Shown piece after piece: positions 2,477-21,297 of a stretch of DNA of 64,000 nucleotides. Source of the DNA: Candidatus Bathyarchaeota archaeon (lineage in GTDB: Archaea > Thermoproteota > Bathyarchaeia > Bathyarchaeales > Bathycorpusculaceae); assembly GCA_963715865.1 (NCBI GenBank), contig OY970280.1:928001-992000 (forward strand). Direction: 5' to 3'. The first letter of the stretch is position 1. Each line of letters begins with the position of its first letter. The translations under genes and the position numbers were made by a program. The notes beneath the pieces are model-generated. The model was not told the origin of the DNA. It did not search any database and saw only the letters and a program-made list of their open reading frames with translations.

Positions 2477-2613
2477 CTGAATCGGTGCCAGGTTGCTATA
2501 CAAATTATCCACATGCACTAGCGCCTAATAACTGCCGAAAATGCGATACAGAATTAAAAAGCCAATGTCAACTGATCGCGGTAAATAAGCCAAAAACGGA
2601 GCTTCTAAAATGA
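2473..2613 (+). CDS. Small Cys-containing protein (46 aa, not in ORF track)
   Basis: MTESVPGCYTNYPHALAPNNCRKCDTELKSQCQLIAVNKPKTELLK; ATGA overlaps with both neighbours. Confidence 0.5.
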   Translation: MTESVPGCYTNYPHALAPNNCRKCDTELKSQCQLIAVNKPKTELLK

Positions 2614-5159
2614 CTGAGCAGCAGGAACTTAAGGCAGCGGCAGAGGTTTATCACGAGTTAGGCATGTCCATTATACCTTTTTACATTAACCCTCAAGCCG
2701 ATGCTAACGGAGTACATGACAAAAAACCGATAATAACCACTTATGCACAATGGCAAACAACACCACAGACAGACGAAGAGTTTAAGGGCCTAGACTGGAG
2801 AGGATGTAACGGTTTTGGCATACTGTTAGGCAAGAAAGCCAAAAATGGTTTATACCTTTCTGCTATTGACTTCGACACAAAAAACAACAAAAAGACCCCT
2901 GAAGAACGCGAAGCCTACGAAAAAGCAATAATCAAAGGGAAAGAAATCTTTAACGACTTTCCAGTAACCATGATAGAAAAGACCGTTAATGACGGATTGC
3001 ATAAGCTCTATTGGAGTAAGATTAAACCAAAAATCGAAGGCACTTTTCACGATACGATAGCCCTTGAGCTTTTAGGAGAGAATAAACTCTGTGTTATGCG
3101 TCCTTCATACGGTTATACTAATATAGGCTCTGATGTAATAACTGAAGTTGAGAACTTAGAAGAAACTTTTTACTATATTCTAAAACAGCATGGTTTCAGT
3201 CTTGATGAAGAAACAGAAATAGCAAACCAACAAGATAATTACAGCTTCGAGATCAGTAAGATTGTTGACTTATCCAAACTGGAAAAGCAAGCAAACGGCT
3301 ATGAATACCAAGGCTCTCACCCGATCCACGACAGCACAACGGAAAAGAATTTTTGCGTAAACACCAAAACTAACACATGGTTCTGCTTTAGACACAACAG
3401 CGGAGGCGGTGTACTTCAATATTTAGCCATGAAGGACGGCTTAATCAAGTGCGAACAAGCCAAAAAAGGCGCGCTTAGAGGAAAGAAGTTTAAAGACGTT
3501 CTTGAGTTAGCAGTCGCTAGTCACTTGTTAGACGAAAAGGTACTCACTCAGAGCGAAATTAACCCGGTGATTTTGGCTAAAGATATCATGGAAGATTATG
3601 TTTTTGTGGTTGACAGAGAAGCAGACGAACTTTATTTCTATGATGAATCTGAAGGCATATATTCCAATATGACTGAGCAGTTTCTTAGAAGGCAAATTAC
3701 AAAGCGTCTTGATGAAAATTTCAAATCCCGATATCAGACAGAAATAACCGAGTTTATCCTAGGCATAGCACCGCTCGTTATAATGAATTCTGCAAAACCT
3801 GAAATGCTACCGATAAAAAACGGTTTATTAAATGTCCTAACTAAAGAGTTCTCAGAGTACACTTCAGACGTTTACATAACCAATAAACTAACCGATGTTA
3901 CCTTTAATCCTGCAGAGCAAAGCACCGTTTGGCACGACTTTTTGAATCAAGTATTACCAAATAAAATACAGCAAAGACAGCTCCAGCAACTCATAGGACA
4001 TTGCCTTATCAAAGCAATCTTAACGGAAACATGTGTTATTTTACTTGGAAAAGGTGCTAACGGTAAAACTATTTTCTTACTAACTATCACTAAGTTTCTT
4101 GGAGGCTCAAACAACGTTAGCAGCCACTCAATACAAGCCTTATGCTACGACAAATTCATAACTGGAGAAATCAGAGGCAAACTTGCTAATATTTGCGCTG
4201 ACCTACCGCATAAAGAACTCTTAAACACAGCAATTTTTAGAGGCTTAACGTCCGGTGACAGTTTACAAGGCTATATCAAACACGTTCAAAAAACCGTATC
4301 ATTCATACCGACAGCTAAATATATCTTTTCAGCTAACCAAACGCCTCCAGTAGCCAATGAAGAGGACTGTTACGCATGGTACAGACGTTTCGTTTTTGCA
4401 GATTTTAACGTAACTTTCACCGGTGAAAACGCGAAGCCACGACAAGAATTATTAAACAGCCTATCAACTCCAGCCGTATTCAGCGAAATCTTGAATTGGG
4501 CCTTAGACGGTCTAGCTGACTTAATTAAAAACAAATGTGAAATCTCAGAACGCCCAACAGTGGAATACATAACACACCAATACATACTCCGCTCAGATAC
4601 AGCCCTAGCATATTTTGAGGAAAAAGTAACAATCACGGATAACTCTACAGACTTCGTTTTTACAGATGATTGGCATAGAGATTATGTAACTTACTGTCAT
4701 AACACCGATTTGAAACCTAAAAATCAAGGCGAATTCATTGAAACAGTAAAACAACATTTACCAGGTGCCGAACACTGTAGAATTCGGCCCTACTATGCAA
4801 AAGGTGACCATAAACCGAGTGCTTTATCAGCCTATCGTTATGTTAAAATCGTGAAAAGTGTACCACGTGTACCAGATGTACTGGCTCCCGAAATTATAAC
4901 GCCAAAACAAGAAAAAAAACAACTAGGTGATTTTACTATTTCAGGGGGAATAATTCCAGAAGCCAGTACACCCAGTACCAGTGGTACACAACGAGAGAGA
5001 ATTCAGCGAACTTATGATTTAATCAAGCAACAATACAAAAAATCAAGTATGCCTTTAGAAGTTAAGACAATAGAAGATCAAGAGGCAGTTACGCAACTTA
5101 TCCGGGAAAGTAAGGTGTTTTTCACTCAAGCTGGGTATATAGCGCCAACGGAGGCTTAA
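2610..5159 (+). CDS. Bifunctional primase-polymerase / Zn-finger / SF3 (D5/P4-like) helicase replication protein
   Basis: N-terminal Prim-Pol motifs (GMSIIPF, GFGILLG, LSAIDFD, GLHKLYW); CHC2-like HPIH...WFCFRH; Walker A GKGANGKT; KYIFSANQTP motif C. Confidence 0.9.
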   Translation: MTEQQELKAAAEVYHELGMSIIPFYINPQADANGVHDKKPIITTYAQWQTTPQTDEEFKGLDWRGCNGFGILLGKKAKNGLYLSAIDFDTKNNKKTPEEREAYEKAIIKGKEIFNDFPVTMIEKTVNDGLHKLYWSKIKPKIEGTFHDTIALELLGENKLCVMRPSYGYTNIGSDVITEVENLEETFYYILKQHGFSLDEETEIANQQDNYSFEISKIVDLSKLEKQANGYEYQGSHPIHDSTTEKNFCVNTKTNTWFCFRHNSGGGVLQYLAMKDGLIKCEQAKKGALRGKKFKDVLELAVASHLLDEKVLTQSEINPVILAKDIMEDYVFVVDREADELYFYDESEGIYSNMTEQFLRRQITKRLDENFKSRYQTEITEFILGIAPLVIMNSAKPEMLPIKNGLLNVLTKEFSEYTSDVYITNKLTDVTFNPAEQSTVWHDFLNQVLPNKIQQRQLQQLIGHCLIKAILTETCVILLGKGANGKTIFLLTITKFLGGSNNVSSHSIQALCYDKFITGEIRGKLANICADLPHKELLNTAIFRGLTSGDSLQGYIKHVQKTVSFIPTAKYIFSANQTPPVANEEDCYAWYRRFVFADFNVTFTGENAKPRQELLNSLSTPAVFSEILNWALDGLADLIKNKCEISERPTVEYITHQYILRSDTALAYFEEKVTITDNSTDFVFTDDWHRDYVTYCHNTDLKPKNQGEFIETVKQHLPGAEHCRIRPYYAKGDHKPSALSAYRYVKIVKSVPRVPDVLAPEIITPKQEKKQLGDFTISGGIIPEASTPSTSGTQRERIQRTYDLIKQQYKKSSMPLEVKTIEDQEAVTQLIRESKVFFTQAGYIAPTEA

Positions 5160-5160
5160 G

Positions 5161-6348
5161 ATGGAAGCCCAAGCCGTTATTAAGTGTCCTGAATGCGGCA
5201 GCGAGAAATTCTTTAAAGACGGGGTAAGGAAACTTTCAAACAAGCAAGAAAAACAGCGTTATGTTTGCCGTGTATGTGGCTACAGATATACATACCCTAC
5301 TAGCTTAAATTCTGTCTCGGACAATTCAGTGAGCAGCCAAATATGCGTCGCGGAGACGAAAAATTTGGAACCAGTGCAGAAAACAAAAGGAAAACTATTC
5401 TGTGCTGGAGATGCAAAACTAAGTGCTGACACCAAAGGATTACTAACACAGTTCTACGCCTACCTAGAAAAAGAAGCCTATTCTGTTGAAAGCGATTACG
5501 TTGATAAAGTTAAGCACCTTGCCGTTCTTGGAGCTAACATTCGCGATCCAGAACACGTTAAAACCGTAATCGGACACATGCAACGGAAAGACGGCCAAAA
5601 AACTAAAAACGGCACTAAAATGCTGTACTGTTATTCCTATGATGCTTTTGTTAAAATGCTTAAAATTCAGTGGGATATGCCTACCTACGTTCAAGAGGAC
5701 CATGATCCTTTTGTTCCTGACGAAACCGAATTAGACGCATTAATCAGCTCTGCTAAATCTAAACTGTTAGCCGCTTACCTACAATGCCTAAAAGAAACGT
5801 TTGGCGACCCCGGCGAAGTGTTAAGAATCAAATATTTAGACGTTGACACCAACAACAAGGCAATAAGCATACGTTACCCCGTAAAAAATCACCTACCACG
5901 AACCCTTCAAGTATCAAACCGACTGTTAGCCATGATTGAAGCACTACCAAAAAAAGACGATAGAGTTTTCCCGACATCTTACGCAAACATGCTTAGACGT
6001 TTCGTGACTATGCGCAAAAGAACGGCTGATATCCACCAAAACCCCAGGCTATTAGCGGTTGACTTCACAGCCTTTAGAACTTGGGCTGGAACCATGATCG
6101 CCTACCACACAAACGGAAACGTGCTAATAGTTAAGAAACTGCTAGGCCACAAACAAATCAAAAACACAATGAAGTACATAGGCAAAATACAGTTCCAAAG
6201 CCAAGACTTTGAAACAACAAGCGCGTCAACCGTTGAGGACATCTTAAAATTGGGTTCTCAAGGCTGGATAGAATACTCAGTTGATAAAATCAACAATGTT
6301 GAATATCACTGTTTCAAGAAGCCTAAGAGGTTTAGCACTTATGTCTAA
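5161..6348 (+). CDS. Tyrosine recombinase/integrase with N-terminal Zn ribbon
   Basis: CPEC...CRVC Zn ribbon; AFRTWAGT, LLGHKQIKNTMKY; C-terminal tail ending HCFKKPKR. The first catalytic Arg position reads ETFGDPGE. Confidence 0.85.
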   Translation: MEAQAVIKCPECGSEKFFKDGVRKLSNKQEKQRYVCRVCGYRYTYPTSLNSVSDNSVSSQICVAETKNLEPVQKTKGKLFCAGDAKLSADTKGLLTQFYAYLEKEAYSVESDYVDKVKHLAVLGANIRDPEHVKTVIGHMQRKDGQKTKNGTKMLYCYSYDAFVKMLKIQWDMPTYVQEDHDPFVPDETELDALISSAKSKLLAAYLQCLKETFGDPGEVLRIKYLDVDTNNKAISIRYPVKNHLPRTLQVSNRLLAMIEALPKKDDRVFPTSYANMLRRFVTMRKRTADIHQNPRLLAVDFTAFRTWAGTMIAYHTNGNVLIVKKLLGHKQIKNTMKYIGKIQFQSQDFETTSASTVEDILKLGSQGWIEYSVDKINNVEYHCFKKPKRFSTYV

Positions 6349-7551: not shown

Positions 7552-7619
7552 GAATAGTACTGATGAGTTGGGAAATTCTTATTGCTTCCGATAGCGCATA
7601 TAGGTGTGGGCTGGCGAGT

Positions 7620-7921
7620 TGGTGTGTGGCTTTCGGACCCAAAAAATGCTGGGTCTGAGGAAACTCCGCCCACGTGTAGAATTGCAGTGCCCCAAGGGTA
7701 CAGGGCGAGAGCCTTGGCTACGGAGCAGAAACGAAACGTCCAATTGGACTTGGCGATGAGACATTTGTGATGTCGAGTGTGCCAGTTTGGAAGCGGTGAA
7801 ACGGCCGTCCTGCAAGTGGAAAGGGCAAACAGTCGCTGATGAGGAATCTACCTGAAGGCGCGGGTAGCCCGATTAGCCGAATGCCACAATAACAGAAGGC
7901 GGGTTACAACCAACACACCAC
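7620..7921 (+). ncRNA. rnpB: RNase P RNA
   Basis: Universal CR-I GAGGAAACTCCGCCC and CR-V AACAGAAGGCGGGTTA. These form P4 with a bulged U (ACTCCGCC/GGCGG-GT). P1 = TGGTGTGTGG with CCAACACACCA. About 300 nt. Confidence 0.92.
7896..7921 (+). repeat. att core copy 1 (3' end of rnpB): AAGGCGGGTTACAACCAACACACCAC
   Basis: 26/26 identical to 12436-12461; the first 25 nt are identical to 18952-18976. Confidence 0.95.
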
Positions 7922-8890: not shown

Positions 8891-8920
8891 GCTACGCTCC
8901 GCTACGCTCCGCTACGCCCC
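8891..8920 (+). repeat. 3 x 10-bp tandem repeat GCTACGCTCC followed by a T-run
   Basis: gctacgctcc gctacgctcc gctacgcccc ttttttt, between the convergent int and Rep operons. Confidence 0.85.
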
Positions 8921-9147: not shown

Positions 9148-9425
9148 AAATTAGCTATCACCGCCAAACCAGAAACATCATTATCCAAACCATAACGAAA
9201 CTCCATTTCAACAGAAGACAAATCTTGAAGAACCAACAAAAGAGGAAAAATACCAAAATTACCAAACCGCAAATAAAAACGGTACTGAAACTTACCAATC
9301 CCTTCACAAGCAAAAAAAACAACATCATCCGTCAAATAAAAACCATAAAAAACAGCCTTATCAACCACTTTTTTACCCTTAACAAACTTAACCTCAGAAA
9401 CAGGAACCTCAAAAGATTTATTCAG
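9144..9425 (-). CDS. Hypothetical protein (beta-rich); probably starts at CTG 9425 rather than GTG 9368
   Basis: Frame is open to 9425 with a GAGGTG SD 5 nt upstream; adds NKSFEVPVSEVKFVKGKK before VVDKAVF. Confidence 0.5.
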   Translation of the reverse strand: MNKSFEVPVSEVKFVKGKKVVDKAVFYGFYLTDDVVFFACEGIGKFQYRFYLRFGNFGIFPLLLVLQDLSSVEMEFRYGLDNDVSGLAVIANL

Positions 9426-10560
9426 AGTTACACCTCAAATTACCATCCGAATCCTTAACAAACAAATTACCGCCAAAAGCATCATACATATCCAAAATCA
9501 AATGCCTATGAAAATCAGGCGAACTCTCAACAGTACAAATCTTAACCCCACCGCAACCGCATTGACTAATTCTAACAAGTTCCAAACCGCAAAGAGGACA
9601 AACACGCTTATCCTTCTCAGGCTTATAATGCAACTTATGATAACCAGCCACACCAAACCAAGTCAACGGATAAAACCGTTTACCACCCTTAAGAGAACTA
9701 ATCTTAATCGACGAATGCCCTAACTGATACCAAATCGTACCAACAACAGTTTTACGTTCACCCTCAACCTTACAAATATAACCATCAGTCTTATTCTGCT
9801 CACGGGTCAACTGCTCAAAACCATCACAATGACAAGCCCGATTACAACCCGAAGAAGTACCCCCATGAGAAATCCATTGAGCAAAATCAGGACAATTTCG
9901 ACACCGAGCATAGCTCTCTTTCAGAAAACCAACAATATGCCAATGAGGAGCAAAAAACCACCCTAAACTTGCATCAGAAGTATTCAACTGTTGCCACTCA
10001 CGAAAACCATGATACCGAAAAGCATGAAAGATGACCAAACCGCCAATAATACCCCGCTTAAACGCAATCTTCAACGCCTTAGCATGTAACTTCTCATAAC
10101 TTAAACCATAATCAGACACAGGAACACTCAAAATAATATGCTCTATCTTTCCAAATTGCTTAGAAGCAAACTGTAAACGTTTCTCAGCCTTCCGAGCCTC
10201 ACGAGAAGCCCAACCAAACTTATAACAGACTCTACAAGACGGCTTATTACAATGAATCGAAGCAACATAAACATAAGCCTTATTCGCAAAATTACCAACT
10301 AAACTGTTCACATGACCCTTAACGTTAAGGCATCCTTCTAAATGAGAATGAGAACCACACGAACGATTAGTTTGCTCTTCAAGCCCGACTAACTCAAAAT
10401 CACCATGACGACCCCAAGTCGCATTAACCGCCTTAAAATCAGTCTCAGCAGAAACCTCATCATTCTTCATATCTTTCTGATAAACACGATAAATCTGTTC
10501 AAACTCACTGTCACAATATAAACGCAAAGGAAAAACGCAAAGCGAAACCTTCTTAGTCAA
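9418..10560 (-). CDS. HUH-superfamily rolling-circle replication initiator (Rep) with Zn-binding region
   Basis: HCNKPSCRVC Zn motif; motif I EHIILSVP; motif II APHWHIVG (HUH); motif III WYQLGHSS; C-terminal CPLCG. Confidence 0.78.
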   Translation of the reverse strand: MTKKVSLCVFPLRLYCDSEFEQIYRVYQKDMKNDEVSAETDFKAVNATWGRHGDFELVGLEEQTNRSCGSHSHLEGCLNVKGHVNSLVGNFANKAYVYVASIHCNKPSCRVCYKFGWASREARKAEKRLQFASKQFGKIEHIILSVPVSDYGLSYEKLHAKALKIAFKRGIIGGLVIFHAFRYHGFREWQQLNTSDASLGWFFAPHWHIVGFLKESYARCRNCPDFAQWISHGGTSSGCNRACHCDGFEQLTREQNKTDGYICKVEGERKTVVGTIWYQLGHSSIKISSLKGGKRFYPLTWFGVAGYHKLHYKPEKDKRVCPLCGLELVRISQCGCGGVKICTVESSPDFHRHLILDMYDAFGGNLFVKDSDGNLRCNSE

Positions 10561-10745
10561 ACACCAAGCCCCCCAAGTTTTTCAAAATGAAAATGGCAAC
10601 AATCCTTATTCCGAGCAGGAACCAACAAACCATCTTTCCAATCACACTGAAAGCCAGCTTTAGGATTCAAACGACAAATACAACCATTAGCGTAACAATC
10701 CACATAATCGCAGTCACAAACACCAAAAACAGGAACAGGCATCAT
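10557..10745 (-). CDS. Cys-rich small protein
   Basis: 8 Cys in 62 aa; overlaps both neighbours in the operon. Confidence 0.55.
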   Translation of the reverse strand: MMPVPVFGVCDCDYVDCYANGCICRLNPKAGFQCDWKDGLLVPARNKDCCHFHFEKLGGLGV

Positions 10746-10882
10746 TCAGAACCCCCATTATGCACCTTACGAATAAGCTTAATCAACAAATCAGCCAGCT
10801 CCTTACTAAAAACACCTAAAAACGGAGAAGTAAACACAATAATAGCAATCAAGCCATAGCCAACAGAAGCCAAAACAATCAA
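10742..10882 (-). CDS. Small single-TM protein (46 aa, not in ORF track)
   Basis: TTG start overlapping the upstream TGA; MIVLASVGYGLIAIIVFTSPFLGVFSKELADLLIKLIRKVHNGGSE; stop overlaps the next ATG. Confidence 0.55.
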   Translation of the reverse strand: MIVLASVGYGLIAIIVFTSPFLGVFSKELADLLIKLIRKVHNGGSE

Positions 10883-11151
10883 CGCTCCAAATCTGGAAAA
10901 CCATCCAGCTTATCACAAATCCACGTTAAATGAAACCCATCAAAATGAAAAGAAAACCTATAACGTTTACCGCCAGACCGACAAGCCCCAGAACCCAAAA
11001 CACAGAGGCAAAAAGGCTTACCAAAACGAGTTAAACCAATGAAATTAGCAGAAGGACAAACACTCAAACGGTCTTTTTCAGCCTTACCAACGATAACAGA
11101 ACCAACAACGACTTCTATATTCTTACTCAATCTTAACAAGCTCCAGACCAT
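10879..11151 (-). CDS. Hypothetical protein (element A)
   Basis: Fits the overlapping operon; C-x..-C-x-C-x6-C pattern. Confidence 0.5.
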   Translation of the reverse strand: MVWSLLRLSKNIEVVVGSVIVGKAEKDRLSVCPSANFIGLTRFGKPFCLCVLGSGACRSGGKRYRFSFHFDGFHLTWICDKLDGFPDLER

Positions 11152-11329
11152 CGAATATTAGAAGGGATTTACCCTTATCCAAACATTCAACAGCCCAAAG
11201 CTGATTCTCCATCATCATAAAATACAAATCATCGACACAAAGGTCGAAAACAATACTAAATTCTTTAGAGGCACGTTTATGATAAACATAAACAGACGAA
11301 CCGTTATCACGAAACGCCTTAAGTGCCAT
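11123..11329 (-). CDS. Hypothetical protein, first gene of the Rep operon
   Basis: ATG preceded by GGGG and an upstream TATA-like TTTTTTATAT on the minus strand. Confidence 0.5.
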   Translation of the reverse strand: MALKAFRDNGSSVYVYHKRASKEFSIVFDLCVDDLYFMMMENQLWAVECLDKGKSLLIFDGLELVKIE

Positions 11330-11438: not shown

Positions 11439-11535
11439 GGGCTTGCGTACCTAACAGATGTTTAAGCCATCTGGCAAGCCCCACACAAAAGGACAAAACA
11501 AAGACAAAGTAACTCTTTTTAGGAAAAGAGATTAC
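11439..11535. other. Candidate replication origin of element A (stem-loops)
   Basis: GGGCTTGC..CAGATG-[TTTAAGC]-CATCTG GCAAGCCC hairpin, then a GTAACTCTTTTT-AGG-AAAAGAGATTAC hairpin; both have counterparts at 17794-17880. Confidence 0.55.
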
Positions 11536-12235
11536 AGAAAAACCTTGAAACTAAACTGGAAGCGCAACACTCACAAAGAGTGTGCGAATTAACGAGCCAT
11601 CTACTCTTTCCAGAAAGAGATAGCAGAAAGCAACGCAACACGGCGAAAAAAGCTAAAAGTGGCGAGCCAGAGGTAAAAATGAGCCAATTTTTTTCCCTAA
11701 GTGCAAGTTCTCCAATTTCACGGAAAAAAAATGCTTGATAGCCCGTATTCCCCTTTTCACATATAATAGAAAAGGGAACCCCGAGCGGTGCCTCATTTTT
11801 ATCCACTTTTCCGAGCTTTTTTCGCCAAGCCAAAAACGAGAAAGAGTGTTAATAATGAAAATATATAGAAAAAGGCTAAAGACCAAACTTTCTTAAAAAA
11901 AGTTACAAAGAACTTATGGAAAAGAAAACATGAACGCATACGCTAACATATTTACGATATACCTGTAAAGCATCATAAACCGTTAAAAAACAGTTAATCT
12001 AAAAACTACAAATTAAAACGCTAAAACAAAAGTGATAAACAGCTAAAAAAAATGTAGAGATTAACCTACACTCAAACAAGCAAATGATAACAAAGTAACC
12101 ATTAAACCACAGGTTAAAAAAAGGTACAAAATCACCACCCCAACAATATCGTAACAAATTGTACCAAATAGAACATTAATGTATCAATAATATATAAAAA
12201 CATATATACAAATATCAATATATCCTAACATACCT

Positions 12236-12382
12236 ATGGTGAAAATTAAAATGGGAAAAACAACAATAATCTTAACCCAAGAAAACGAGAACCAAATCAG
12301 AATACGAAACCGTAAAAAAGGAGATATATCAAACACAATCAACCAAGCATTAGAACAATACTTCAAGAAGGTAGAACAATGA
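12236..12382 (+). CDS. Ribbon-helix-helix (CopG/Arc-like) protein (48 aa, not in ORF track)
   Basis: MVKIKMGKTTIILTQENENQIRIRNRKKGDISNTINQALEQYFKKVEQ: beta strand, helix, KKG turn, helix. Its stop overlaps the int(N) ATG. Confidence 0.75.
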   Translation: MVKIKMGKTTIILTQENENQIRIRNRKKGDISNTINQALEQYFKKVEQ

Positions 12383-12461
12383 CAGAAACAACAATAGAAA
12401 TAATAACAACAGAACCCACAAAAGAACGTACGATTAAGGCGGGTTACAACCAACACACCAC
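12379..12461 (+). CDS. int(N): N-terminal stub of element A integrase
   Basis: MTETTIEIITTEPTKERTI-KAGYNQHTT reads through att copy 2 in the same frame in which att copy 1 leads into int(C). Confidence 0.8.
12436..12461 (+). repeat. att core copy 2
   Basis: AAGGCGGGTTACAACCAACACACCAC, identical to 7896-7921. Confidence 0.95.
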
Positions 12462-12540
12462 GCCCAATTTCTGCTTACAATTGCTAAACTTACTTCTTTT
12501 TGTAAACTGCTTTGTCAACAAAGAACAGCATGATCTGGCA

Positions 12541-13494
12541 TTAATGCAAAACTTGCAAAAGAATAGCAATAATTGCTAAAGAAGCTGCAAAATATGGTGA
12601 TCGTGCTACAGCCTTTAAGGTATCAATGGGCGTGACAACTGTTATCATTGACGATAACTCTGATATTGGGTATTCCTTGTCATCTCTTCCAGTTTTGATA
12701 TTTTTTAAGGCTGTTAAAGCATCTCTAAGATCCTCCTTGCGTTGGGCCACACGCAAAGACTTGAGGAAGAGTTCAATTTGATTCCTGACTACAATCAGTT
12801 CATCATCTTTTCCCGCCAGAAATTCGCAGCAAGCTATCTTGCTGTATTCTTTTAAACCCTCAATACTGACATGGACGACCATAACTTGATTGAGATAGTC
12901 ATTATAAGCGTCTAACCCGGTATCAAAAAGATTTGAAAAGCTCTTTATTATTTTCTTTCTTTCAAGCTCATCTTGTACTTGTCTTACATTTATTGCTTTA
13001 ATTAAGGCTAGTTTAATGTAAATACGAGCCTTCCTATATTTTGATAAAGAGCCGATTAGCAAAAAAACCGATATTAGCAATAATGGTAGCGTAAGATTGA
13101 GAGAATAATCAATTAAAGAGTAAAGTCCTCCATTATTTTTAATCCATTGTGGATAATAAGCAAGCAATAAAATGGAAGTAGCAAACAATAATGTGAAAAT
13201 AAACATAAGGAAGGCAACAAAATATGTTCGGTATTTGTCTATAAAAATGAGGTTGCCTGGGTACAGTTCTTTCTTGCTTAATGAAATATAAATTCGACTA
13301 TGTATTAAAACTGCAGTTGCAAGAATAATTGTCCAAATATAGATAGTTAAAGACGATGGAGCTAAATAATATATAATCTCAAAAATGGTTAAGATGATTA
13401 TGATTAAGCTTAGCTCAATGAGCCTAATGTGTTGCCCATACGAATGATAAAACCTTTCGCTCAGTTTTATTCTCTTAAACGCTTTTGAAAACAT
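12541..13494 (-). CDS. Membrane protein, about 4 N-terminal TMs plus a helical domain
   Basis: 317-aa ORF with hydrophobic segments; no family recognised. Confidence 0.65.
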   Translation of the reverse strand: MFSKAFKRIKLSERFYHSYGQHIRLIELSLIIIILTIFEIIYYLAPSSLTIYIWTIILATAVLIHSRIYISLSKKELYPGNLIFIDKYRTYFVAFLMFIFTLLFATSILLLAYYPQWIKNNGGLYSLIDYSLNLTLPLLLISVFLLIGSLSKYRKARIYIKLALIKAINVRQVQDELERKKIIKSFSNLFDTGLDAYNDYLNQVMVVHVSIEGLKEYSKIACCEFLAGKDDELIVVRNQIELFLKSLRVAQRKEDLRDALTALKNIKTGRDDKEYPISELSSMITVVTPIDTLKAVARSPYFAASLAIIAILLQVLH

Positions 13495-13629
13495 GTGTGA
13501 TTAAATGACCTTTGTGGTTAAATATTTTGGCGTTAGATCAAGGTAGAGTCTTGTTGATTTGTTTTAACTTAAATAAAACGCCTATTCATAGACTGAAACT
13601 CTTCAATTTTTAATTTAACTATTCCCAAT

Positions 13630-14457
13630 ATGCTTAAATTTAGTTCCTCACCAAAGAATTGCAAAGGTCTCTCCATAATGGCAAGTACATTCAGTTTGAA
13701 AAGATCCTATTTGGTGTTAATTCTATTAGCTATTTTTTTTAGCGCCTTATCTTCTTACTTATTTTTTGCTTACAAAGAACAGTGGTTCTCAGCTTATTCT
13801 ACCAGCATTGCTTCAGGGATTGTAGGTTCATTAATAGTGATTTTTCTTATTGACCGAATAATTGAGAGAAACCGAGAAAGGGAACAAATGCAAATGAGAA
13901 AAATTGCTCTGGAAAAGCTGCGCATACCAATTGTATGGCAAATGATGTTGTTATGTAATGTGTATAAAGCTGCTTCAAAAGACAAACCACAGAAGCTACC
14001 ATCCAACTTTCAAGAGATATTTACGGACAATTTTTACACTGAAGTATCATTCCTTGATTTTGCCAAGGATGCTGGCGTTACGCCGAAGACGGATTGGTTC
14101 AACCGCTTGGATTCAGAGCTCCGATTCTTTAAGAAAAAAATTGAGCAAACCATTGATACTTACGCTATTTTTTGTGATAGCTCATTCATTAGTCTGCTTG
14201 AGAAGCTCATCAACTCACACTTTACCTTTTTTATTATTCAGGCAAAAGCTATTCCGATTGTAGACATGCAAATGGGATTCAAACGTCGCTATACTATGTT
14301 CTCAGGAACTGAAGAATTTTTGAAAGAACATGCTCTTCTTATGCTTCAGCTAATTGATTACTTCAATTCGGAAGCTGAAAAACCAATTGAATTTGATACA
14401 AGTATTTGGAGAGATGATGTTTCTCCACTATGGGGTAGCGGGCGAGTTCAAGGTTAG
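13630..14457 (+). CDS. Hypothetical protein, 2 N-terminal TMs plus a soluble domain
   Basis: 275-aa ORF; probable start MASTF at 13678. Confidence 0.65.
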   Translation: MLKFSSSPKNCKGLSIMASTFSLKRSYLVLILLAIFFSALSSYLFFAYKEQWFSAYSTSIASGIVGSLIVIFLIDRIIERNREREQMQMRKIALEKLRIPIVWQMMLLCNVYKAASKDKPQKLPSNFQEIFTDNFYTEVSFLDFAKDAGVTPKTDWFNRLDSELRFFKKKIEQTIDTYAIFCDSSFISLLEKLINSHFTFFIIQAKAIPIVDMQMGFKRRYTMFSGTEEFLKEHALLMLQLIDYFNSEAEKPIEFDTSIWRDDVSPLWGSGRVQG

Positions 14458-14506
14458 CCAATATATAGCAAAAGGAAAAAGCCTAGCTTTATTGATAACC
14501 CACCAT

Positions 14507-14829
14507 CTATTTGGGTTTTCTAAAAGCATGATGCCTTCGGTAGTAATGCAAACAAAGCTGAAGCCATCTTCAGTTAGTCTCTGAGCCTCTTCTGTCGTTT
14601 TAGCAATTGCTGAATAGTATTTGTCTCCCTCAGTTTTGATTAGATGCGTATATACCATTGTCGAGTTTATATTTTTATGACCTAATCTTTCTTGGACATG
14701 CAGAAGGACGTTTGTTTTAGCGTATTCTGTTGAACCAAACCAATGTCTGAGGCTATGAAACTTTATTTGATTAAGCCTTGGATTTTGTAATTTTATCGCA
14801 AGTCTTTTTCTCTGCTTTTCATAACTCCA
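14507..14829 (-). pseudogene. Tyrosine integrase C-terminal remnant
   Basis: Manual translation: KQRKRLAIKLQNPRLNQIKFHSLRHWFGSTEYAKTNVLLHVQERLGHKNINSTMVYTHL...; the N-terminal half is absent; a 1-nt deletion disrupts the terminal LFRKPK-stop. Confidence 0.85.
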
Positions 14830-14840
14830 TCAGTGACGCT

Positions 14841-15167
14841 TCAATTTTGCTTGGATTCTTTGTAGAGAAGGATTAGCCCCGCCAAGATAAGTAATGCTGG
14901 AACTACTCTAAAGATGACATTGAAAAAATAAATCCAACCCCAAGGAATGATGTAGGTTAATACAACTTCCATCCTAAGATAAATGTAGCTAATTACAATG
15001 GGTAAAGCTATCCATCCAACCGCTAGCAAAGCAGAGCCGACACCCATAATTAGGTATCCTTTCTTCTTCATCTTGAGAAAAAAGAAAGTTGAAACTGCTC
15101 CGACCATACCAAATATTATTGCTGGCAAGTAACTATTCAAAAGATCATACAGCAATGTTTCCCACAT
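14841..15167 (-). CDS. Small 3-TM membrane protein
   Basis: 108 aa, three hydrophobic segments. Confidence 0.6.
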   Translation of the reverse strand: MWETLLYDLLNSYLPAIIFGMVGAVSTFFFLKMKKKGYLIMGVGSALLAVGWIALPIVISYIYLRMEVVLTYIIPWGWIYFFNVIFRVVPALLILAGLILLYKESKQN

Positions 15168-15604
15168 TTTTACGCCCTCAATTGGTTAGGTATTAAGTCT
15201 TACCGCTTATAATTTTTTCAATAACTTAACCTGTAACCCGCTAAACAACACGAAATTCTATTAGTGATTGCCAATTAAAGATTAGATTATGCCTTAGATT
15301 TTCTCAAGATATGACAGTATATCTCAAGTTAAGTCTCGGCGTCGCTCCGCTCCACCTCGACGTTTACAAAATCAACCAACCGCGTTTTCGATGGCAAAAC
15401 TAAAGTCAATTCCAATACCTAAACCACTTCTAAGAAACAGAACTCGGCAATCAACCTTTGAGACTGACTTTATAATGGTTCAATTTGATATTCCTTAAAT
15501 ATAGTGTTACAACAATTAGCCTAGAATTGTCGATCCGATGTTTTAGTATTGCATGAAAATGCCAAAAGTTTTATCTTGTCTCTTAAACAATACTTAAACT
15601 TTAA

Positions 15605-16156
15605 TTGAAGGTAAGACAAATGGGAAGACTTAGCCTTGCATTCAAAACAAAGTATGGCGATATCAGAATTGAAGGCGATTCACTCGCAGATTTCAAGAAT
15701 ATTTTGCTAGAAATTGGAGTTTCAGAGATAGACATAGAGAGTATTAGAAACACAATCACATCCCAAATCGAGCATCAAGACATTATTGTTAGTATTCCTT
15801 CAATTCCAATTAGTTCATCAAAACCCGAGCTTACGGGAGTAATTGAGTATGGAAATGATGGGACTCCTCATATCACAATATCTTCTGACAAATTAACTGC
15901 AAGAGAAGTTATAGGTCTTCTTCTGTATACAAAAAGTCCAAATTCAATTTCCATGGGCGAACTTACTAACTTAGTAAAAAACAACTGGAAAAATGTTGAT
16001 ATGACGCAGATTTCGGCTAATCTAAGTTTTATGCGAGCTTATGTAATTAAAGAAGGGACAAGAGGCTCTTATTCATACAGACTCTCTGGGTCGGGCAAAG
16101 AATGGATTGAAAATGAACTGCTTCCAAAACTAAGGATGAAGTCAGTAAAGGCTTAG
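15605..16156 (+). CDS. Hypothetical protein with C-terminal winged helix
   Basis: LTAREVIGLLLY...SMGELTNLV...ISANLS...YSYRLSGSGKEWIE resembles a wHTH; abuts the next gene. Confidence 0.6.
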   Translation: MKVRQMGRLSLAFKTKYGDIRIEGDSLADFKNILLEIGVSEIDIESIRNTITSQIEHQDIIVSIPSIPISSSKPELTGVIEYGNDGTPHITISSDKLTAREVIGLLLYTKSPNSISMGELTNLVKNNWKNVDMTQISANLSFMRAYVIKEGTRGSYSYRLSGSGKEWIENELLPKLRMKSVKA

Positions 16157-16996
16157 GTGTGCCTTATGGGTGATGCTGAGAGAGATGGGGTCTGGTTGGG
16201 AATAGCATTGCAGAGTCTCATAACACTAGGGACAACTAAAAACGTGGTTAAGGAACAGGGTGGGATTTCAGATATTTTAGGCGAACTTATCGCGACCTAT
16301 AACAGAAGTGGAATTTCTGGAAATTTGCTAGCCGAAGCTCAGAGATGGGCGAATTATTTTAGAGACAATTATGCAGGAAATGAAAGTTTAAGACAAGCTG
16401 ACTCGGATAGGTTTGTTGCAGACTGCAGTAATTGGACTAAGTCTTTGATGGATATAATGAAGGAAAGGTTTGCTCACCCGAAGGAACTTTATGATAGACT
16501 GCCCAAAATTGATTTCATTCTTGATTCAATCAAGCAAATACAAACAGTAGAGCATCAATTTGTTTGTACAACACCCAATTCTCGCATTATTAAAGAAAAA
16601 GCCTCCGCAGCAATTGACGCAACTAATCAAGGGGATGTAATCCTTTTAACTGGTTATTTTGATAATGCTTTAGTTGACAAATTGAGTAGAGCATTGAGAC
16701 GAGGGGTTCAGGTTCGGTTAATCGTTCCAACCTACCATGCGAATGAGCATGATAATATTAATGCAACTAGAAGAGTTAGAACTGCAAATGGTCAGGTAAA
16801 ACAGCACGATTCAAATCACGCCAGACTAATGGTTTTCGGTGTAAGAGAAGCTATGGTTTCCTCTGCAGACCCAAAGACGGATGGTTTAGACCAAAATTAC
16901 GAAGCTGGAATTTGGACCACCAACAGAACCATAATCCAAAACTGCAAGGATTTTTTTGAAGAGATTTGGAATGAAGCATTAGATTGGAATATGTAG
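16157..16996 (+). CDS. Phospholipase D-fold (PLD/Nuc/TrmB-like) domain protein with N-terminal helical domain
   Basis: ILLTGYF...ALRRGVQVRLIV...NHARLMVFGVREAMVSSAD...NYEAGI...FFEEIW: PLD topology with a degenerate HxK-x4-D-x6-GSxN. Confidence 0.75.
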   Translation: MCLMGDAERDGVWLGIALQSLITLGTTKNVVKEQGGISDILGELIATYNRSGISGNLLAEAQRWANYFRDNYAGNESLRQADSDRFVADCSNWTKSLMDIMKERFAHPKELYDRLPKIDFILDSIKQIQTVEHQFVCTTPNSRIIKEKASAAIDATNQGDVILLTGYFDNALVDKLSRALRRGVQVRLIVPTYHANEHDNINATRRVRTANGQVKQHDSNHARLMVFGVREAMVSSADPKTDGLDQNYEAGIWTTNRTIIQNCKDFFEEIWNEALDWNM

Positions 16997-17409
16997 ACAT
17001 TGCCCAAGTTGGCAACTATATGCAAGAACCTGTCTAAATGACGCGAATAGAATCCTGTCATAGTCAGGCAGACTTGTGAACTATCGCAAACATCAAGACC
17101 GAGTCAAAAGGGGAACCCCACGATAAACTCGGTTTCCGAGCTTGGAACTGCACGAAACTCAGGCTAAAACCAAGCTATCACTTGCCTTTCCTATGCTCGA
17201 AGGAAAGAAAAAAGGGTTATGAGCTTAAACTACTTTAAAGGATGCGTTCCCTGAATGCATCAACAAATGGAGTAGCTTAACCCCAAACTCCAGAACCCCA
17301 GACTCCTTAGGGGTTCTTACAAGCAACTGACACCTCGCTTAGCGAGTACACCTCTCCTAAAGGGCACCCCCTCGCAAGCGAGGACTCTGTCTTACAAAAA
17401 AGTAAGTAC

Positions 17410-17703
17410 TTAATGCAAATTATTCTTGGGTTTATAGATTATGAATGTGTCTGGGTCTGTTTTGTTTATAGACCGCTTTGTTTTCCACATACTGCCAGCT
17501 TGGTAGGTAAGTTGATGTTTCATTAATATTTCTTGTATGCGTTTTTTTGTTTCTTCATCAAGGGCTGTTTTTATAGTAATTTGGTACCCTCCCATCATTG
17601 ACAAAGAGGCGTTAGAAGATGATAATTCCAAATAATGACCATCAAGACCACTACAATTGTCAAGGAGTTCCTTCAGAACCGATATGGCTTCTTCACGTTT
17701 CAA
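17410..17703 (-). CDS. Hypothetical protein
   Basis: 97-aa ORF with ATG and plausible composition. Confidence 0.55.
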   Translation of the reverse strand: MKREEAISVLKELLDNCSGLDGHYLELSSSNASLSMMGGYQITIKTALDEETKKRIQEILMKHQLTYQAGSMWKTKRSINKTDPDTFIIYKPKNNLH

Positions 17704-17793
17704 AACAATCCCCTATAATTCTCTTAAGAACTTCTCCTAAAAAAGATTCGGTAATACTCTCTTCAAAGGGAGTAGCATCGCTCCCGACTCCCC

Positions 17794-17880
17794 CCTTTAG
17801 TTTAAGCCTAAAGGAAACCCCCTGCCTCTAAGGAATAAAATGAGAATTAGATAAGTAACTTTCTTAGAAAGAAAGGTTAC
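17794..17880. other. Origin-like stem-loops of element B
   Basis: CCTTTAG-[TTTAAGC]-CTAAAGG and GTAACTTTCT-TAGAA-AGAAAGGTTAC, matching the loop and arrangement at 11455-11535. Confidence 0.55.
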
Positions 17881-18179
17881 AAAGAACAATTACTCTATGT
17901 CTGCACAAGAGTAATCAGAAAGCCGTTTTTTTGGCACCCCAAGACCCAAAAAAACCAACAACACCCACCAAGCCATCAAACCACAGTTAAGTAAAAACAC
18001 CTCAGGTAGCGAACAACTTTGGTGCAGAGCACCACCTTTCGCACCTAAGGACTCTGTTTTTTGCTCAGACAAGAAACAACAAAAGAGGAAAGTGAAAGAT
18101 TATTTTATTGTGTTTAGCGCGCGCGGATGTCTGCATCCCTTCATTTGACTCTCCATTTTTTAAATTCATCCAAGTTTTC

Positions 18180-18650: not shown

Positions 18651-18915
18651 ACTGAGCGCAAAAATCTATTTCATTATTCTTGGCTTAAATAATTTGTGTT
18701 GTTGATTCATTTACGGTTGCATTTTTTTTGTTTTTTTAAGAATGTTTGATATTTCCGTTCTTATTAGGCTTGTTTTGTTCGACGCTCTCCATACTCTAAA
18801 TATCAAAACTAAAATTCGGTTTACTTAACAGTGTCTTCACAACCTGAGTTGCCACAAGAAGTAACCGTCTAAAAGCTTATAACTAGACATTAACAATAAG
18901 AACACAGGGATAAAA

Positions 18916-18976
18916 ATGAGTAAAGAAACAAGTAAAAAATTACTAAGGCTAAAGGCGGGTTACAACCAACACACCA
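18916..18976 (+). CDS. int(N)-like stub of element B
   Basis: ATG 18916: MSKETSKKLLRL-KAGYNQHT, same frame through the att core as element A; TATA-like AAAAGCTTATAA about 40 nt upstream. Confidence 0.65.
18952..18976 (+). repeat. att core copy 3 (outermost attR)
   Basis: AAGGCGGGTTACAACCAACACACCA, 25/25 identical. Confidence 0.95.
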
Positions 18977-19002: not shown

Positions 19003-19377
19003 CTAGACTATTCTTATATTTTCTTTGCCAACACTGGCGAGTTTCTGGTCTCTTGTTAGTAAAACCTCATTATTGGCAAGAGAAATGCCCGCAATAAGCA
19101 AATCGTTCTCGTTAATCATTCTTCCAGAATCCCGTAGCTCTTCAAAAAGCAGGGCGGCTCTTTGGGCGGCGGCTCTGTCGAAAGAGTAGACGGTCACGCC
19201 AGACAGGAACCTTTCAGCAGCTTGTTTTCTTATTTTAGTCTTGTGTCTAAGCAACTCGTATTCGGTTATGGTTGTGGTTTTCACGTCTTCTCTCCTTATG
19301 ATTTCTTGGATTAGAGCAACGATTTTTTGGTCGCCCGCCAAGAAATCTATTATGACACTTGTGTCTAGTAGTGTCAC
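19003..19377 (-). CDS. vapC: PIN-domain toxin
   Basis: LLDTSVIID...TEYELL...INENDLLIAGISL...LLTRD. Confidence 0.9.
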   Translation of the reverse strand: MTLLDTSVIIDFLAGDQKIVALIQEIIRREDVKTTTITEYELLRHKTKIRKQAAERFLSGVTVYSFDRAAAQRAALLFEELRDSGRMINENDLLIAGISLANNEVLLTRDQKLASVGKENIRIV

Positions 19378-19631
19378 TCGAATGTCCTTCCGTAATTAGC
19401 CTCTCTTTCGGCGGCTATTTGCTGCTTTAATCGTTCAAGCGTCTCTTTATCATCCTTTAAAATGCCAGCTAAGCTCATGATGTCTACTTTTTCTTCCTTT
19501 GGGCAGAGGTTTTCTTTGATTACCTGTGAAAAACTCTTTTTGCCTTTTCTTTTTGATAGAAGTTCATAAACCTCATTTGAAACTGAAATCTGCCTTGCCA
19601 TAAACATTCCCCATATACATAATGTATACAC
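19374..19631 (-). CDS. vapB: VapB-type antitoxin
   Basis: RQISVSNEVYELLSKRKGKKSFSQVIKE motif; overlaps vapC. Confidence 0.85.
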   Translation of the reverse strand: MYTLCIWGMFMARQISVSNEVYELLSKRKGKKSFSQVIKENLCPKEEKVDIMSLAGILKDDKETLERLKQQIAAEREANYGRTFE

Positions 19632-20647: not shown

Positions 20648-21073
20648 TTAGGGTAGCTGGCAGATTTTGATGTCTTTATTGAAGCGTTGAAGGTTTATAT
20701 CTTGAGAATAAACAAAATTAGCCGCTTGGTTGAGTGCTGTGGCCACAATTAAAGCGTCAGGTAGTCTTCCGCCCCTCTTAGCTCGCAGGTTAGCGGCTAA
20801 ATCAGCAATTTCAAACGTGACTGGCACTATCTTAAAACTGTTAAGAGTCAAATCGTTTAGCAGTTTTTTCACTTTACTGGCCTTATTTGCGTCTGCCATG
20901 TAGAATCCGGTTAAGACTTCTGCAACTGTTACGGTTGAGATGATTCCTTCATTCTCCGTTTTCATGAATGTATTCAATATTTTTTGAGCTTTGCTTGCTT
21001 GAGGCTCGATTCCTTCTAAAAAGTAGATGAGGATGTTAGTGTCTAAACCTATTTTCATTGCTGGCATTCCCAT
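20648..21073 (-). CDS. vapC: PIN-domain toxin
   Basis: IGLDTNILIY...TVAEVL...RLPDALIVATA...YSQD. Confidence 0.9.
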   Translation of the reverse strand: MGMPAMKIGLDTNILIYFLEGIEPQASKAQKILNTFMKTENEGIISTVTVAEVLTGFYMADANKASKVKKLLNDLTLNSFKIVPVTFEIADLAANLRAKRGGRLPDALIVATALNQAANFVYSQDINLQRFNKDIKICQLP

Positions 21074-21297
21074 TCTTCTCGGAGTTTTTTCTGGTATTTG
21101 ACGGGGTCTCCGAAGACGCCTTTTCCAAGCCCCTTCATCTCAGCTACTGGATTAAATGGTTTTAAAAGCAAGCCCTCTTCTGTTTCGTTAATTTCTATTA
21201 TAATCCCATTTTCAATGTTGAATTTCTTGCGAAGCTTTTTGGGGATAACTACTTGTCCGCGCATGCCAACTTTTACTTTTTCAGACAAATTTTTCAC
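21055..21297 (-). CDS. AbrB/MazE/SpoVT-family antitoxin
   Basis: VKVGMRGQVVIPKKLRKKFNIENG; overlaps the PIN gene. Confidence 0.9.
   Translation of the reverse strand: MKNLSEKVKVGMRGQVVIPKKLRKKFNIENGIIIEINETEEGLLLKPFNPVAEMKGLGKGVFGDPVKYQKKLREEWECQQ

Follow-up and report, generated by a model that had tools for sequence, protein, structure and literature searches.

Two related mobile elements lie in tandem at the 3′ end of rnpB, the gene for RNase P RNA, in the window, a stretch of 64,000 nucleotides from contig OY970280.1 whose host genome probably belongs to the Bathyarchaeia. The target-proximal element, A, is a 4.5-kb integrative element with an HUH-type Rep and a split "suicidal" integrase, and the distal one, B, is a 6.5-kb Rep-less unit of the same family. 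All three att sites share the same 25-bp core. In A, int(N), att and int(C) together make up one open frame of 337 aa, the gene being split on integration. The target and element A comprise the following features (window coordinates, with strand where one applies):

7614–7918, + strand: rnpB, an RNase P RNA gene of archaeal type and the target of integration (match to Rfam RF00373 at 188.6 bits, E 5e-55)
7896–7920, + strand: attL, whose 25-bp core is the rnpB 3′ end and has only three copies in the genome
7896–8852, + strand: int(C) of A, catalytic part of the split tyrosine integrase (PF00589, E 6e-17, residues 115–269), frame open through att
8891–8917, − strand: candidate single-strand origin of A, a cluster of GCGNAGC mini-hairpin words, five in number, that overlap
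9418–10560, − strand: HUH-type Rep, 380 aa, Cys-rich, with invariant H206, H208 and Y278
10557–11329, − strand: four small ORFs that precede rep in its operon
11439–11482: hairpin 1 of A (inner stem CAGATG 11455–11460, loop TTTAAGC 11461–11467, stem to 11473)
11509–11535: hairpin 2 of A, with a homologue in the related element L180
11567–11583: hairpin with an ACAAA loop, resembling the ACAAG class of family hairpins
about 11886–11916: second hairpin-2-like copy in A
12236–12382, + strand: 48-aa ORF, CopG/RHH-like by inspection only, with homologues in L032, L062, L063 and L074
12379–12435, + strand: int(N) of A, sharing the frame of att (337 aa when joined to int(C))
12436–12460, + strand: middle att, the right end of A and left end of B, followed by a four-codon stub resembling the start of int(C)

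Rep of A is the sole rep in the genome by both tblastn and profile search. It has no sequence match in Pfam, PHROG, NCBIfam or PDB, and a Foldseek search with its predicted model gave no significant match; HUH endonucleases account for 8 of its top 11 structural matches, at low Z (≤5.3), and its Atlas neighbours carry Rep_1. No relative was confirmed among viral contigs, and a pattern search of genome contigs with the single protein as query returned one weak match. The GCGNAGC words downstream of Rep are strongly oriented across the family, with 73 on the Rep strand versus 8 on the opposite strand. Those of the small upstream ORFs that were scanned gave no family match, the 48-aa ORF gave no HMM match, and no conjugation gene is recognisable in A.

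Element B consists of cargo and of parts familiar from its relatives:

12541–14457: two membrane-anchored cargo ORFs (317 aa on the − strand, 275 aa on the + strand), of no confident family
about 14428–14826, − strand: inverted C-terminal integrase remnant (30% identity to int(C) residues 208–303, E 9e-11)
15335–15365, − strand: mini-hairpin module that matches the motif found downstream of Rep in L075, L109, L112, L117 and L132
15605–16996, + strand: cargo pair, a 183-aa ORF and a PLD-domain protein (PF13091, E 4e-15; DrmC matches weak, below cut-off)
17330–17393: M3 copy 1, a long non-coding family hairpin
17767–17836: M1, a non-coding family module that includes hairpin 1 of B
17794–17814: hairpin 1 of B (perfect 7-bp stem from 17794–17800, loop TTTAAGC 17801–17807)
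17855–17880: hairpin 2 of B
17888–18061: M2 and M3 copy 2, non-coding family modules matching regions upstream of Rep in L037, L050 and L069
18868–18951, + strand: int(N) of B (ATG 18916; same frame as att) together with the conserved promoter motif of the integrase
18952–18976, + strand: attR, the right end of B

The original prediction held that B lacks Rep and int(C) and keeps att and int(N). The absence of Rep stands, as the genome has a single rep, whereas int(C) is not wholly missing, since its inverted C-terminal remnant persists. That B retains att and int(N) is confirmed, int(N) being in frame and still having its promoter motif, and several family cis modules are kept as well. Of recombination genes B has only the int(N) stub and the inverted fragment, neither of them working, and it has no working gene for transfer or replication. 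Its set of cis modules is unusually full and lies on both sides of the absent rep operon, the expected position of which is occupied by the cargo pair at 15605–16996.

Both hairpin pairs were re-located where they had been described, and the spacings of 42 and 48 nt between hairpins 1 and 2 hold if counted from the loop end. The A hairpin segment aligns to B with a score of 54, against a maximum of 47 across 297 random 6.5-kb windows of the genome, and the spacer between the hairpins is also alignable; by this comparison the two pairs are homologous beyond chance, as had been claimed. The 2.35-Mb genome has four copies of the loop TTTAAGC on a perfect stem of at least 6 pairs, among them those of A and B. 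Folding z-scores are −5.5 for A and −3.1 to −3.6 for B. In A, an outer 8-bp stem (11439–11446/11475–11482) encloses the inner one, and a T-rich tail lies on the Rep strand. Hairpin 2 of B is nearer to the A copy at about 11886–11916 than to that at 11509–11535, and no counterpart of the ACAAA-loop hairpin was found in B.

Small HUH-Rep elements with split integrases constitute an undescribed family that is common in this archaeal group: they are present in 48 of 120 congeneric genomes, integrated at tRNA genes or rnpB, and in many members rep or int is broken. Among 55 att-bounded units at the rnpB site, 38 are Rep-less. The 17 Rep units are all target-proximal, and the 20 distal units have neither Rep nor an intact forward int(C), one copy being frameshifted and one a fragment (integrase counts are those of a broader integrase model, which also revealed that four Rep-less units carry an integrase of a second type). 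Mini-hairpin clusters are found in 8 of the 38 Rep-less units versus 10 of the 17 Rep units, as expected under decay. Hairpin 1 is restricted to A and B in this census, and the exact two-hairpin arrangement, a pattern derived from A and B, to the same two among 151 genomes.

Across the wider family, the loop of hairpin 1 has the consensus TTT-N-AG-Y. Covariation analysis of homologous elements, which had been suggested as a check, confirmed that the loop is conserved and the stems covary in other elements (33 double-sided changes, in hairpins that had been selected for pairing). The hairpin always lies upstream of rep, between divergent units, and on one strand (11 occurrences versus 0 on the other, with 0.4 expected). 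The TTT-N-AG-Y hairpin is thus a genuine module of the family that covaries and keeps to one strand. In the Rep-less units L087 and L088 it is kept with stems that are swapped yet paired, which points to selection at least until recently. The invariant loop bases, the paired stems and the fixed position are all in favour of a reading in which hairpin 1 is a double-strand origin nicked by Rep of A, and B a non-autonomous replicon that is excised and copied in trans; so are the candidate single-strand origin also kept in B and the open 380-aa Rep frame of A beside an element without rep. However, hairpin 1 is confined to 9 of the 116 homologous Rep elements, and these are scattered over a quick Rep tree. 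The other 107, about 90%, include closer relatives of A, namely the complete element L032 (Rep 62% identical) and L180 (Rep 70% identical; hairpin 2 kept). The Reps of the nine are mostly 34–58% identical to one another, the loop being common to Reps only 34–46% identical to that of A, and in homologous copies of the M1 module unrelated loops take its place. Moreover, B-type hairpin copies in four other genomes are accompanied by no detected Rep (0/4 versus 47/119; p = 0.15, not significant, and a free helper could be unassembled); the B-type pattern was not found in viral contigs. The original prediction had taken the shared loop for the Rep nick site and B for a helper-dependent satellite of A; these counts support neither claim, the loop being missing from most Rep-encoding homologues. 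Replication of B in trans is improbable. As a corollary of it, a single-stranded circle of 6,340 nt would be released with no need of integrase when Rep starts at the B loop and ends at the A loop. The broader proposal that Bathyarchaeia carry non-autonomous rolling-circle replicons is a long shot: Rep-less cargo units (B, L087, L088) would keep a loop nicked by Rep and a single-strand origin made of mini-hairpins, and would be copied by a TTT-N-AG-Y-recognising subset of Reps, and two loops per array would also permit integrase-free release of a 6.3-kb circle.

More likely, the shared hairpin is an exchangeable signal acting as single-stranded DNA or RNA. Read on either strand, the loop is YUNR with a free middle base, and it may tentatively be seen as an RNA recognition or attenuator loop; a part in a single-strand origin is slightly less likely, a role as Rep nick loop is unlikely, and some other role is more unlikely still. 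Wobble asymmetry is limited to a single G-T, on the + strand only, too little for strand assignment, and imperfect-stem versions in other elements show no excess at 4–5 of 7 pairs. A search of the literature on antisense control in pSSVx found no paper. A TATA box in an operator was considered for hairpin 1 and rejected: the box is disrupted in the variants TTTCAGC and TTTTAGT, and what the stems conserve is pairing, not sequence. As for the true nick site of Rep, the displayed part of a nucleotide alignment of A's clade shows no clear non-coding invariant, and a search by shared words found no site, being swamped by low-complexity T/G words, so that B may still hold one.

What, then, is B? 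Probably, in our judgement, it is a decayed unit of A's family, similar to a CIME and able to co-excise with A; most likely it is a relic, stranded but with a possible way out together with A, and not a true satellite copied by it. B would have stayed behind as elements accreted in tandem at the 3′ end of rnpB, losing rep and int(C), gaining cargo, and keeping att, int(N) and the non-coding modules by descent. If a distal unit had an intact int(C), its joining to the upstream int(N) would produce a live integrase and the unit would be excised, which would explain why the surviving distal units lack int(C). Mobility of B would be mainly in cis: recombination of the outer att sites would give an 11,056-bp A+B circle carrying Rep of A and a 330-aa hybrid integrase, int(N)B–int(C)A. 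Integrase from a free A could also excise B alone (6,516 bp), and such a circle need not replicate. The hairpin would be an exchangeable leader module that acts single-stranded and is not tied to Rep specificity. This explanation is supported by the Rep-less majority, the proximal-only Rep and the lack of intact int(C) distally, by the rarity of hairpin 1 and its absence from closer relatives of A, and by the hybrid integrase frame, which is open. It also agrees with the rule for CIMEs in streptococci, where tandem accretion of ICEs and IMEs leaves the most decayed element farthest from the target (PMC7563491), and with the argued instability of intact tandem suicidal integrases (PMC7253208). 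It is weakened by the unusually full cis-module set of B and the restriction of the two-hairpin arrangement to A and B, by the recent selection seen in L087 and L088, and by the chance that B holds the nick site of Rep.

Decay may also have gone further, B being an inert relic with neutral leftover modules and excision of the array lost entirely. The broken rep or int of many family members, the inverted integrase fragment and the finding that split integrase halves are poorly active, an intact enzyme being required for excision (PMC8371274), agree with this, but the identical att cores, the open frames of rep, int(C) and both int(N) in the array and the perfect stems of B make it doubtful. 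Quite improbable is the idea that M1, M3 and hairpin 2 in B serve chiefly as terminators or cassette-joint sites, kept so that cargo is expressed or captured and unrelated to replication: M1 and M3 do flank cargo ORFs at two or three copies per element (B, L068, L088, L091), several copies having A and T tracts at both ends, but the conserved loop bases of hairpin 1 are left unexplained.

Although the satellite claim is weak, the surrounding system is useful. The loss of int(C) from distal units fits and extends the published prediction of instability (PMC7253208). The family reuses the tail of the RNase P RNA gene and stacks there as arrays whose distal units lack the catalytic integrase half; such arrays offer a route for cargo capture and movement. 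It also supplies candidate replicon parts for Bathyarchaeia, a lineage for which we know of no genetic tools.

Geminivirus beta- and deltasatellites are replicated by their helpers through a rolling circle, are found with these helpers, and share a loop that is universal in them. B is similar in that, lacking Rep itself, it has a loop in common with a Rep-encoding element while the stem differs, but this loop is not universal among Rep elements, and no Rep was detected beside the B-type copies of the four other genomes. In layout, A resembles SSV1, pTN3 and pT26-2, with att inside the integrase gene, catalytic int(C) at the target end and int(N) at the far end (PMC7253208, PMC8371274). Unlike these, it carries an HUH Rep as replication gene and targets rnpB instead of a tRNA gene, the RNase P RNA gene being unmentioned in both papers; tandem arrays are common in its family, whereas identical tandem insertions are reported as never observed (PMC7253208, PMC8371274). 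The archaeal rolling-circle plasmids pGT5, pTN1, pC2A and pZMX201 share with A an HUH-type Rep without helicase, small size and hairpin-rich non-coding DNA, but the Rep of A stands apart in sequence, and their nick sequences, in or near rep (quoted in PMC9569500), differ from TTTAAGC. The pGT5-type nick word is absent from A and B, as is a pGT5/pC194-like word that adjoins hairpin 1 in L042, L061 and L076. A close parallel is with CIMEs (PMC7563491). The A/B array differs from them in being archaeal, in the small rolling-circle-type partner of 4.5 kb, and in the split integrase, so that co-excision would build a hybrid enzyme; because A has no conjugation genes and is thus no ICE or IME partner, B works like a CIME without being classed as one. 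Like CIMEs, B is an att-bounded decayed unit devoid of working recombination and replication genes, placed in tandem beyond an intact element, on the side away from the target; the att sites of the two have the same specificity, and B is predicted to be able to leave with this element as a composite.

Three copies of a 25-bp repeat, at 7896, 12436 and 18952, correspond to the 3′ end of the archaeal RNase P RNA gene (rnpB) and bound the 4.5-kb integrative element A and, distal to it, the 6.5-kb unit B.

Features of the region
2610-6348 (+): separate element left of rnpB, with genes for an 849-aa P4-family primase/helicase and a 395-aa tyrosine recombinase that has an N-terminal zinc finger
7614-7918: RNase P RNA gene
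8891-8917: five GCGNAGC words of A
9418-10560 (-): HUH-type Rep of A, 380 aa, in a leftward operon
11439-11482 and 11509-11535: hairpins 1 and 2 of A
11567-11583: hairpin with an ACAAG-type loop
~11886-11916: extra hairpin-2-like copy in A
~14428-14826: inverted C-terminal integrase remnant in B
15335-15365: GCGNAGC mini-hairpin module of B
15605-16996: cargo pair of B, including a PLD-domain protein
17330-17393 and 17989-18061: non-coding module M3
17410-17703 (-): 97-aa ORF
17794-17814 and 17855-17880: hairpins 1 and 2 of B
19003-19631 and 20648-21297 (-): to the right of attR, a pair of genes each, resembling PIN-domain toxin-antitoxin modules by inspection; similar pairs are present in units L197, L198 and L206

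In A, the C-terminal integrase half, int(C), lies immediately 3′ of the first att (PF00589), and the N-terminal half, int(N), is in frame with the middle att, the joined halves giving 337 aa. The Rep of A, the sole one in the 2.35-Mb genome, has HUH histidines and a Tyr278 that are invariant across 40 homologues; a structural comparison, weak by itself, placed HUH endonucleases in 8 of its first 11 rows (Z ≤5.3), and the nearest Atlas clusters are archaeal, for the most part from Bathyarchaeota, which makes a Bathyarchaeia host probable. Neither of two papers on suicidal integrases (PMC7253208, PMC8371274) mentions insertion at RNase P RNA genes.

The original prediction placed two hairpins in A and two in B, and all four were found there, together with the extra hairpin-2-like copy in A, which corrects it. 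The genome has four TTTAAGC loops on perfect stems of at least six pairs, two of which are those of A and B, and folding compared with shuffles gave z values of -5.5 for A and -3.1 to -3.6 for B. The A segment aligns with B over both hairpins and the intervening spacer, and the score exceeds those of 297 out of 297 random B-sized genome windows; the resemblance is homology, not chance. A third TTTAAGC hairpin of this genome (G000 C1 2100460), outside the window, has a mini-hairpin pair 250 nt off, at 2100711, in the opposite relative strand, with no rep, att or tRNA nearby.

The shared loop had been proposed as a conserved Rep nick site. A nick site (dso) is required in every working element and is expected to track its Rep. 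The bind and nick loci of the dso have been described (PMC5714925). Hairpin 1 recurs as a loop TTT-N-AG-Y on differing paired stems, the covariation count being inflated since paired hairpins had been selected, and with at least 6/7 pairs it is always 5′ of rep on one strand (11 cases vs 0 on the opposite strand and 0.4 in simulations). It is present in only 9 of 116 non-redundant Rep elements; the Reps of these carriers are dispersed across a quick tree and are 34-46% identical to that of A, except L039 (81%). The complete element L032 (Rep 62% identical) has no such heptamer upstream of rep, L180 (70%) retains hairpin 2 within the same module context but carries a different hairpin at the place of hairpin 1, and other copies of the module holding B's hairpin 1 have unrelated loops or none. 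The loop is thus largely unconserved among other Rep-encoding homologues, which speaks against the claim. The true nick site of A's Rep was searched for and not found, and it may still be present in B. In three elements (regions L042:8789, L061:8800 and L076:6782) the Rep strand has a nick word like that of pGT5/pC194 no more than ~60 nt from hairpin 1; A and B have no such word. Another class of hairpin, whose 5-nt loop is of the ACAAG type and whose stems vary, also lies 5′ of rep and is confined to one strand (17 regions vs 0), as in L047, L048, L052, L053, L055-L058, L064, L073 and this window.

This distribution fits a single-strand signal that is exchangeable. Read from either strand, the hairpin 1 loop gives YUNR with a free middle base, and YUNR is the motif of the antisense recognition loops that control plasmid copy number (PMC4485353); in A the hairpin precedes the rep operon by 130 nt, and its T-rich tail falls on the mRNA strand. 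By this analogy it may be an RNA recognition loop; it is almost as likely to belong to a single-strand origin. The strongest non-coding signal family-wide is clusters of GCGNAGC words 3′ of rep (73 on the Rep strand vs 8 on the other), and the module of B closely matches those of other elements. Since such words form very stable DNA mini-hairpins present at primase sites of single-stranded phages (PMC13037366), the clusters are a fair candidate for an archaeal single-strand origin. They are kept in 8 of 38 Rep-less units vs 10 of 17 Rep units, as predicted by decay and not by selection for an origin.

B encodes cargo ORFs and int(N), with its own promoter motif. It had been said to lack Rep and int(C): rep is indeed absent, and a C-terminal integrase remnant is present in inverted form, as it is inside Rep-less units L192, L200 and L204. 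As its non-coding segments 17330-18061 and 18868-18951 match rep-upstream regions of other elements and it carries the mini-hairpin module, B is a member of the family and has its outline, with cargo in place of the rep operon. The cargo pair, with weak DrmC/NucT matches below cut-off, is possibly defence cargo. Other parts of the genome encode three paralogues of the 97-aa ORF (74%, 40% and 30%), and relatives have many. M3, a long bulged hairpin whose ends bear A and T tracts (also in L037, L050, L069 and L091), occurs in two or three copies per element around cargo and may be a terminator or cassette joint.

Across the genus the rnpB-tail att is common, and a genome often has several copies. 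Among 55 att-bounded units, 17 with rep and 38 without, only A and B have hairpin 1. All 17 Rep units adjoin the target, and rep is absent from all 20 distal units (Fisher p 1e-4, which overstates the significance because kin are non-independent and loci were partly picked by Rep); an intact forward int(C) occurs in 0 of the 20, and a full forward integrase is missing in 34 of the 38. The units look like a gene-cassette system. In genus genomes (L184-L219), att copies delimit units of 0.6-9 kb that often comprise an int(N) stub with 1-2 cargo genes, and as many as four copies form an array. In several genomes the copies are spread over more than one contig, and some of them are flanked by longer rnpB-like sequence. 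In L094, L199, L202, L203 and L208, a second, divergent tyrosine recombinase lies directly 3′ of the rnpB att, with or without rep.

It had further been proposed that B could be a satellite excised and replicated in trans by A, which we consider unlikely. Its best point is two Rep-less units at tRNA-Ala (L087, L088) that keep the hairpin 1 loop while inner stem bases are swapped. B-type hairpin modules occur in four other genomes of the genus, one of them 99% complete in about ten contigs, and none of the four has a Rep profile match vs 47 of 119 genomes overall (p=0.15); with so small a sample, and a free helper that could be absent from an assembly, the count gives the satellite no support without disproving it. 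The original observation holds, and its interpretation is supported in part.

Most likely, B came first and A inserted later at the restored rnpB end. Four codons 3′ of the middle att resemble the int(C) start apart from silent changes, as would be expected of a truncated int(C), though many att copies are followed by similar letters. Were int(C) intact in the distal unit, it would fuse with A's int(N) into a live integrase, and PMC7253208 argues that such a state is purged. By recombining, the outer att copies would yield a circle of 11,056 bp that includes A's rep and carries B in cis, and in which the hybrid integrase frame is open over 330 aa. In the systems studied, excision requires an intact integrase from a free copy (PMC8371274). 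Such carriage by outer att recombination, proposed here from sequence, resembles that of cis-mobilizable elements (CIMEs), as does the position of B farthest from the target (PMC7563491). B is not a formal CIME because its partner A is not conjugative; by analogy, it would behave as one, next to a small element of the rolling-circle type whose integrase is suicidal.
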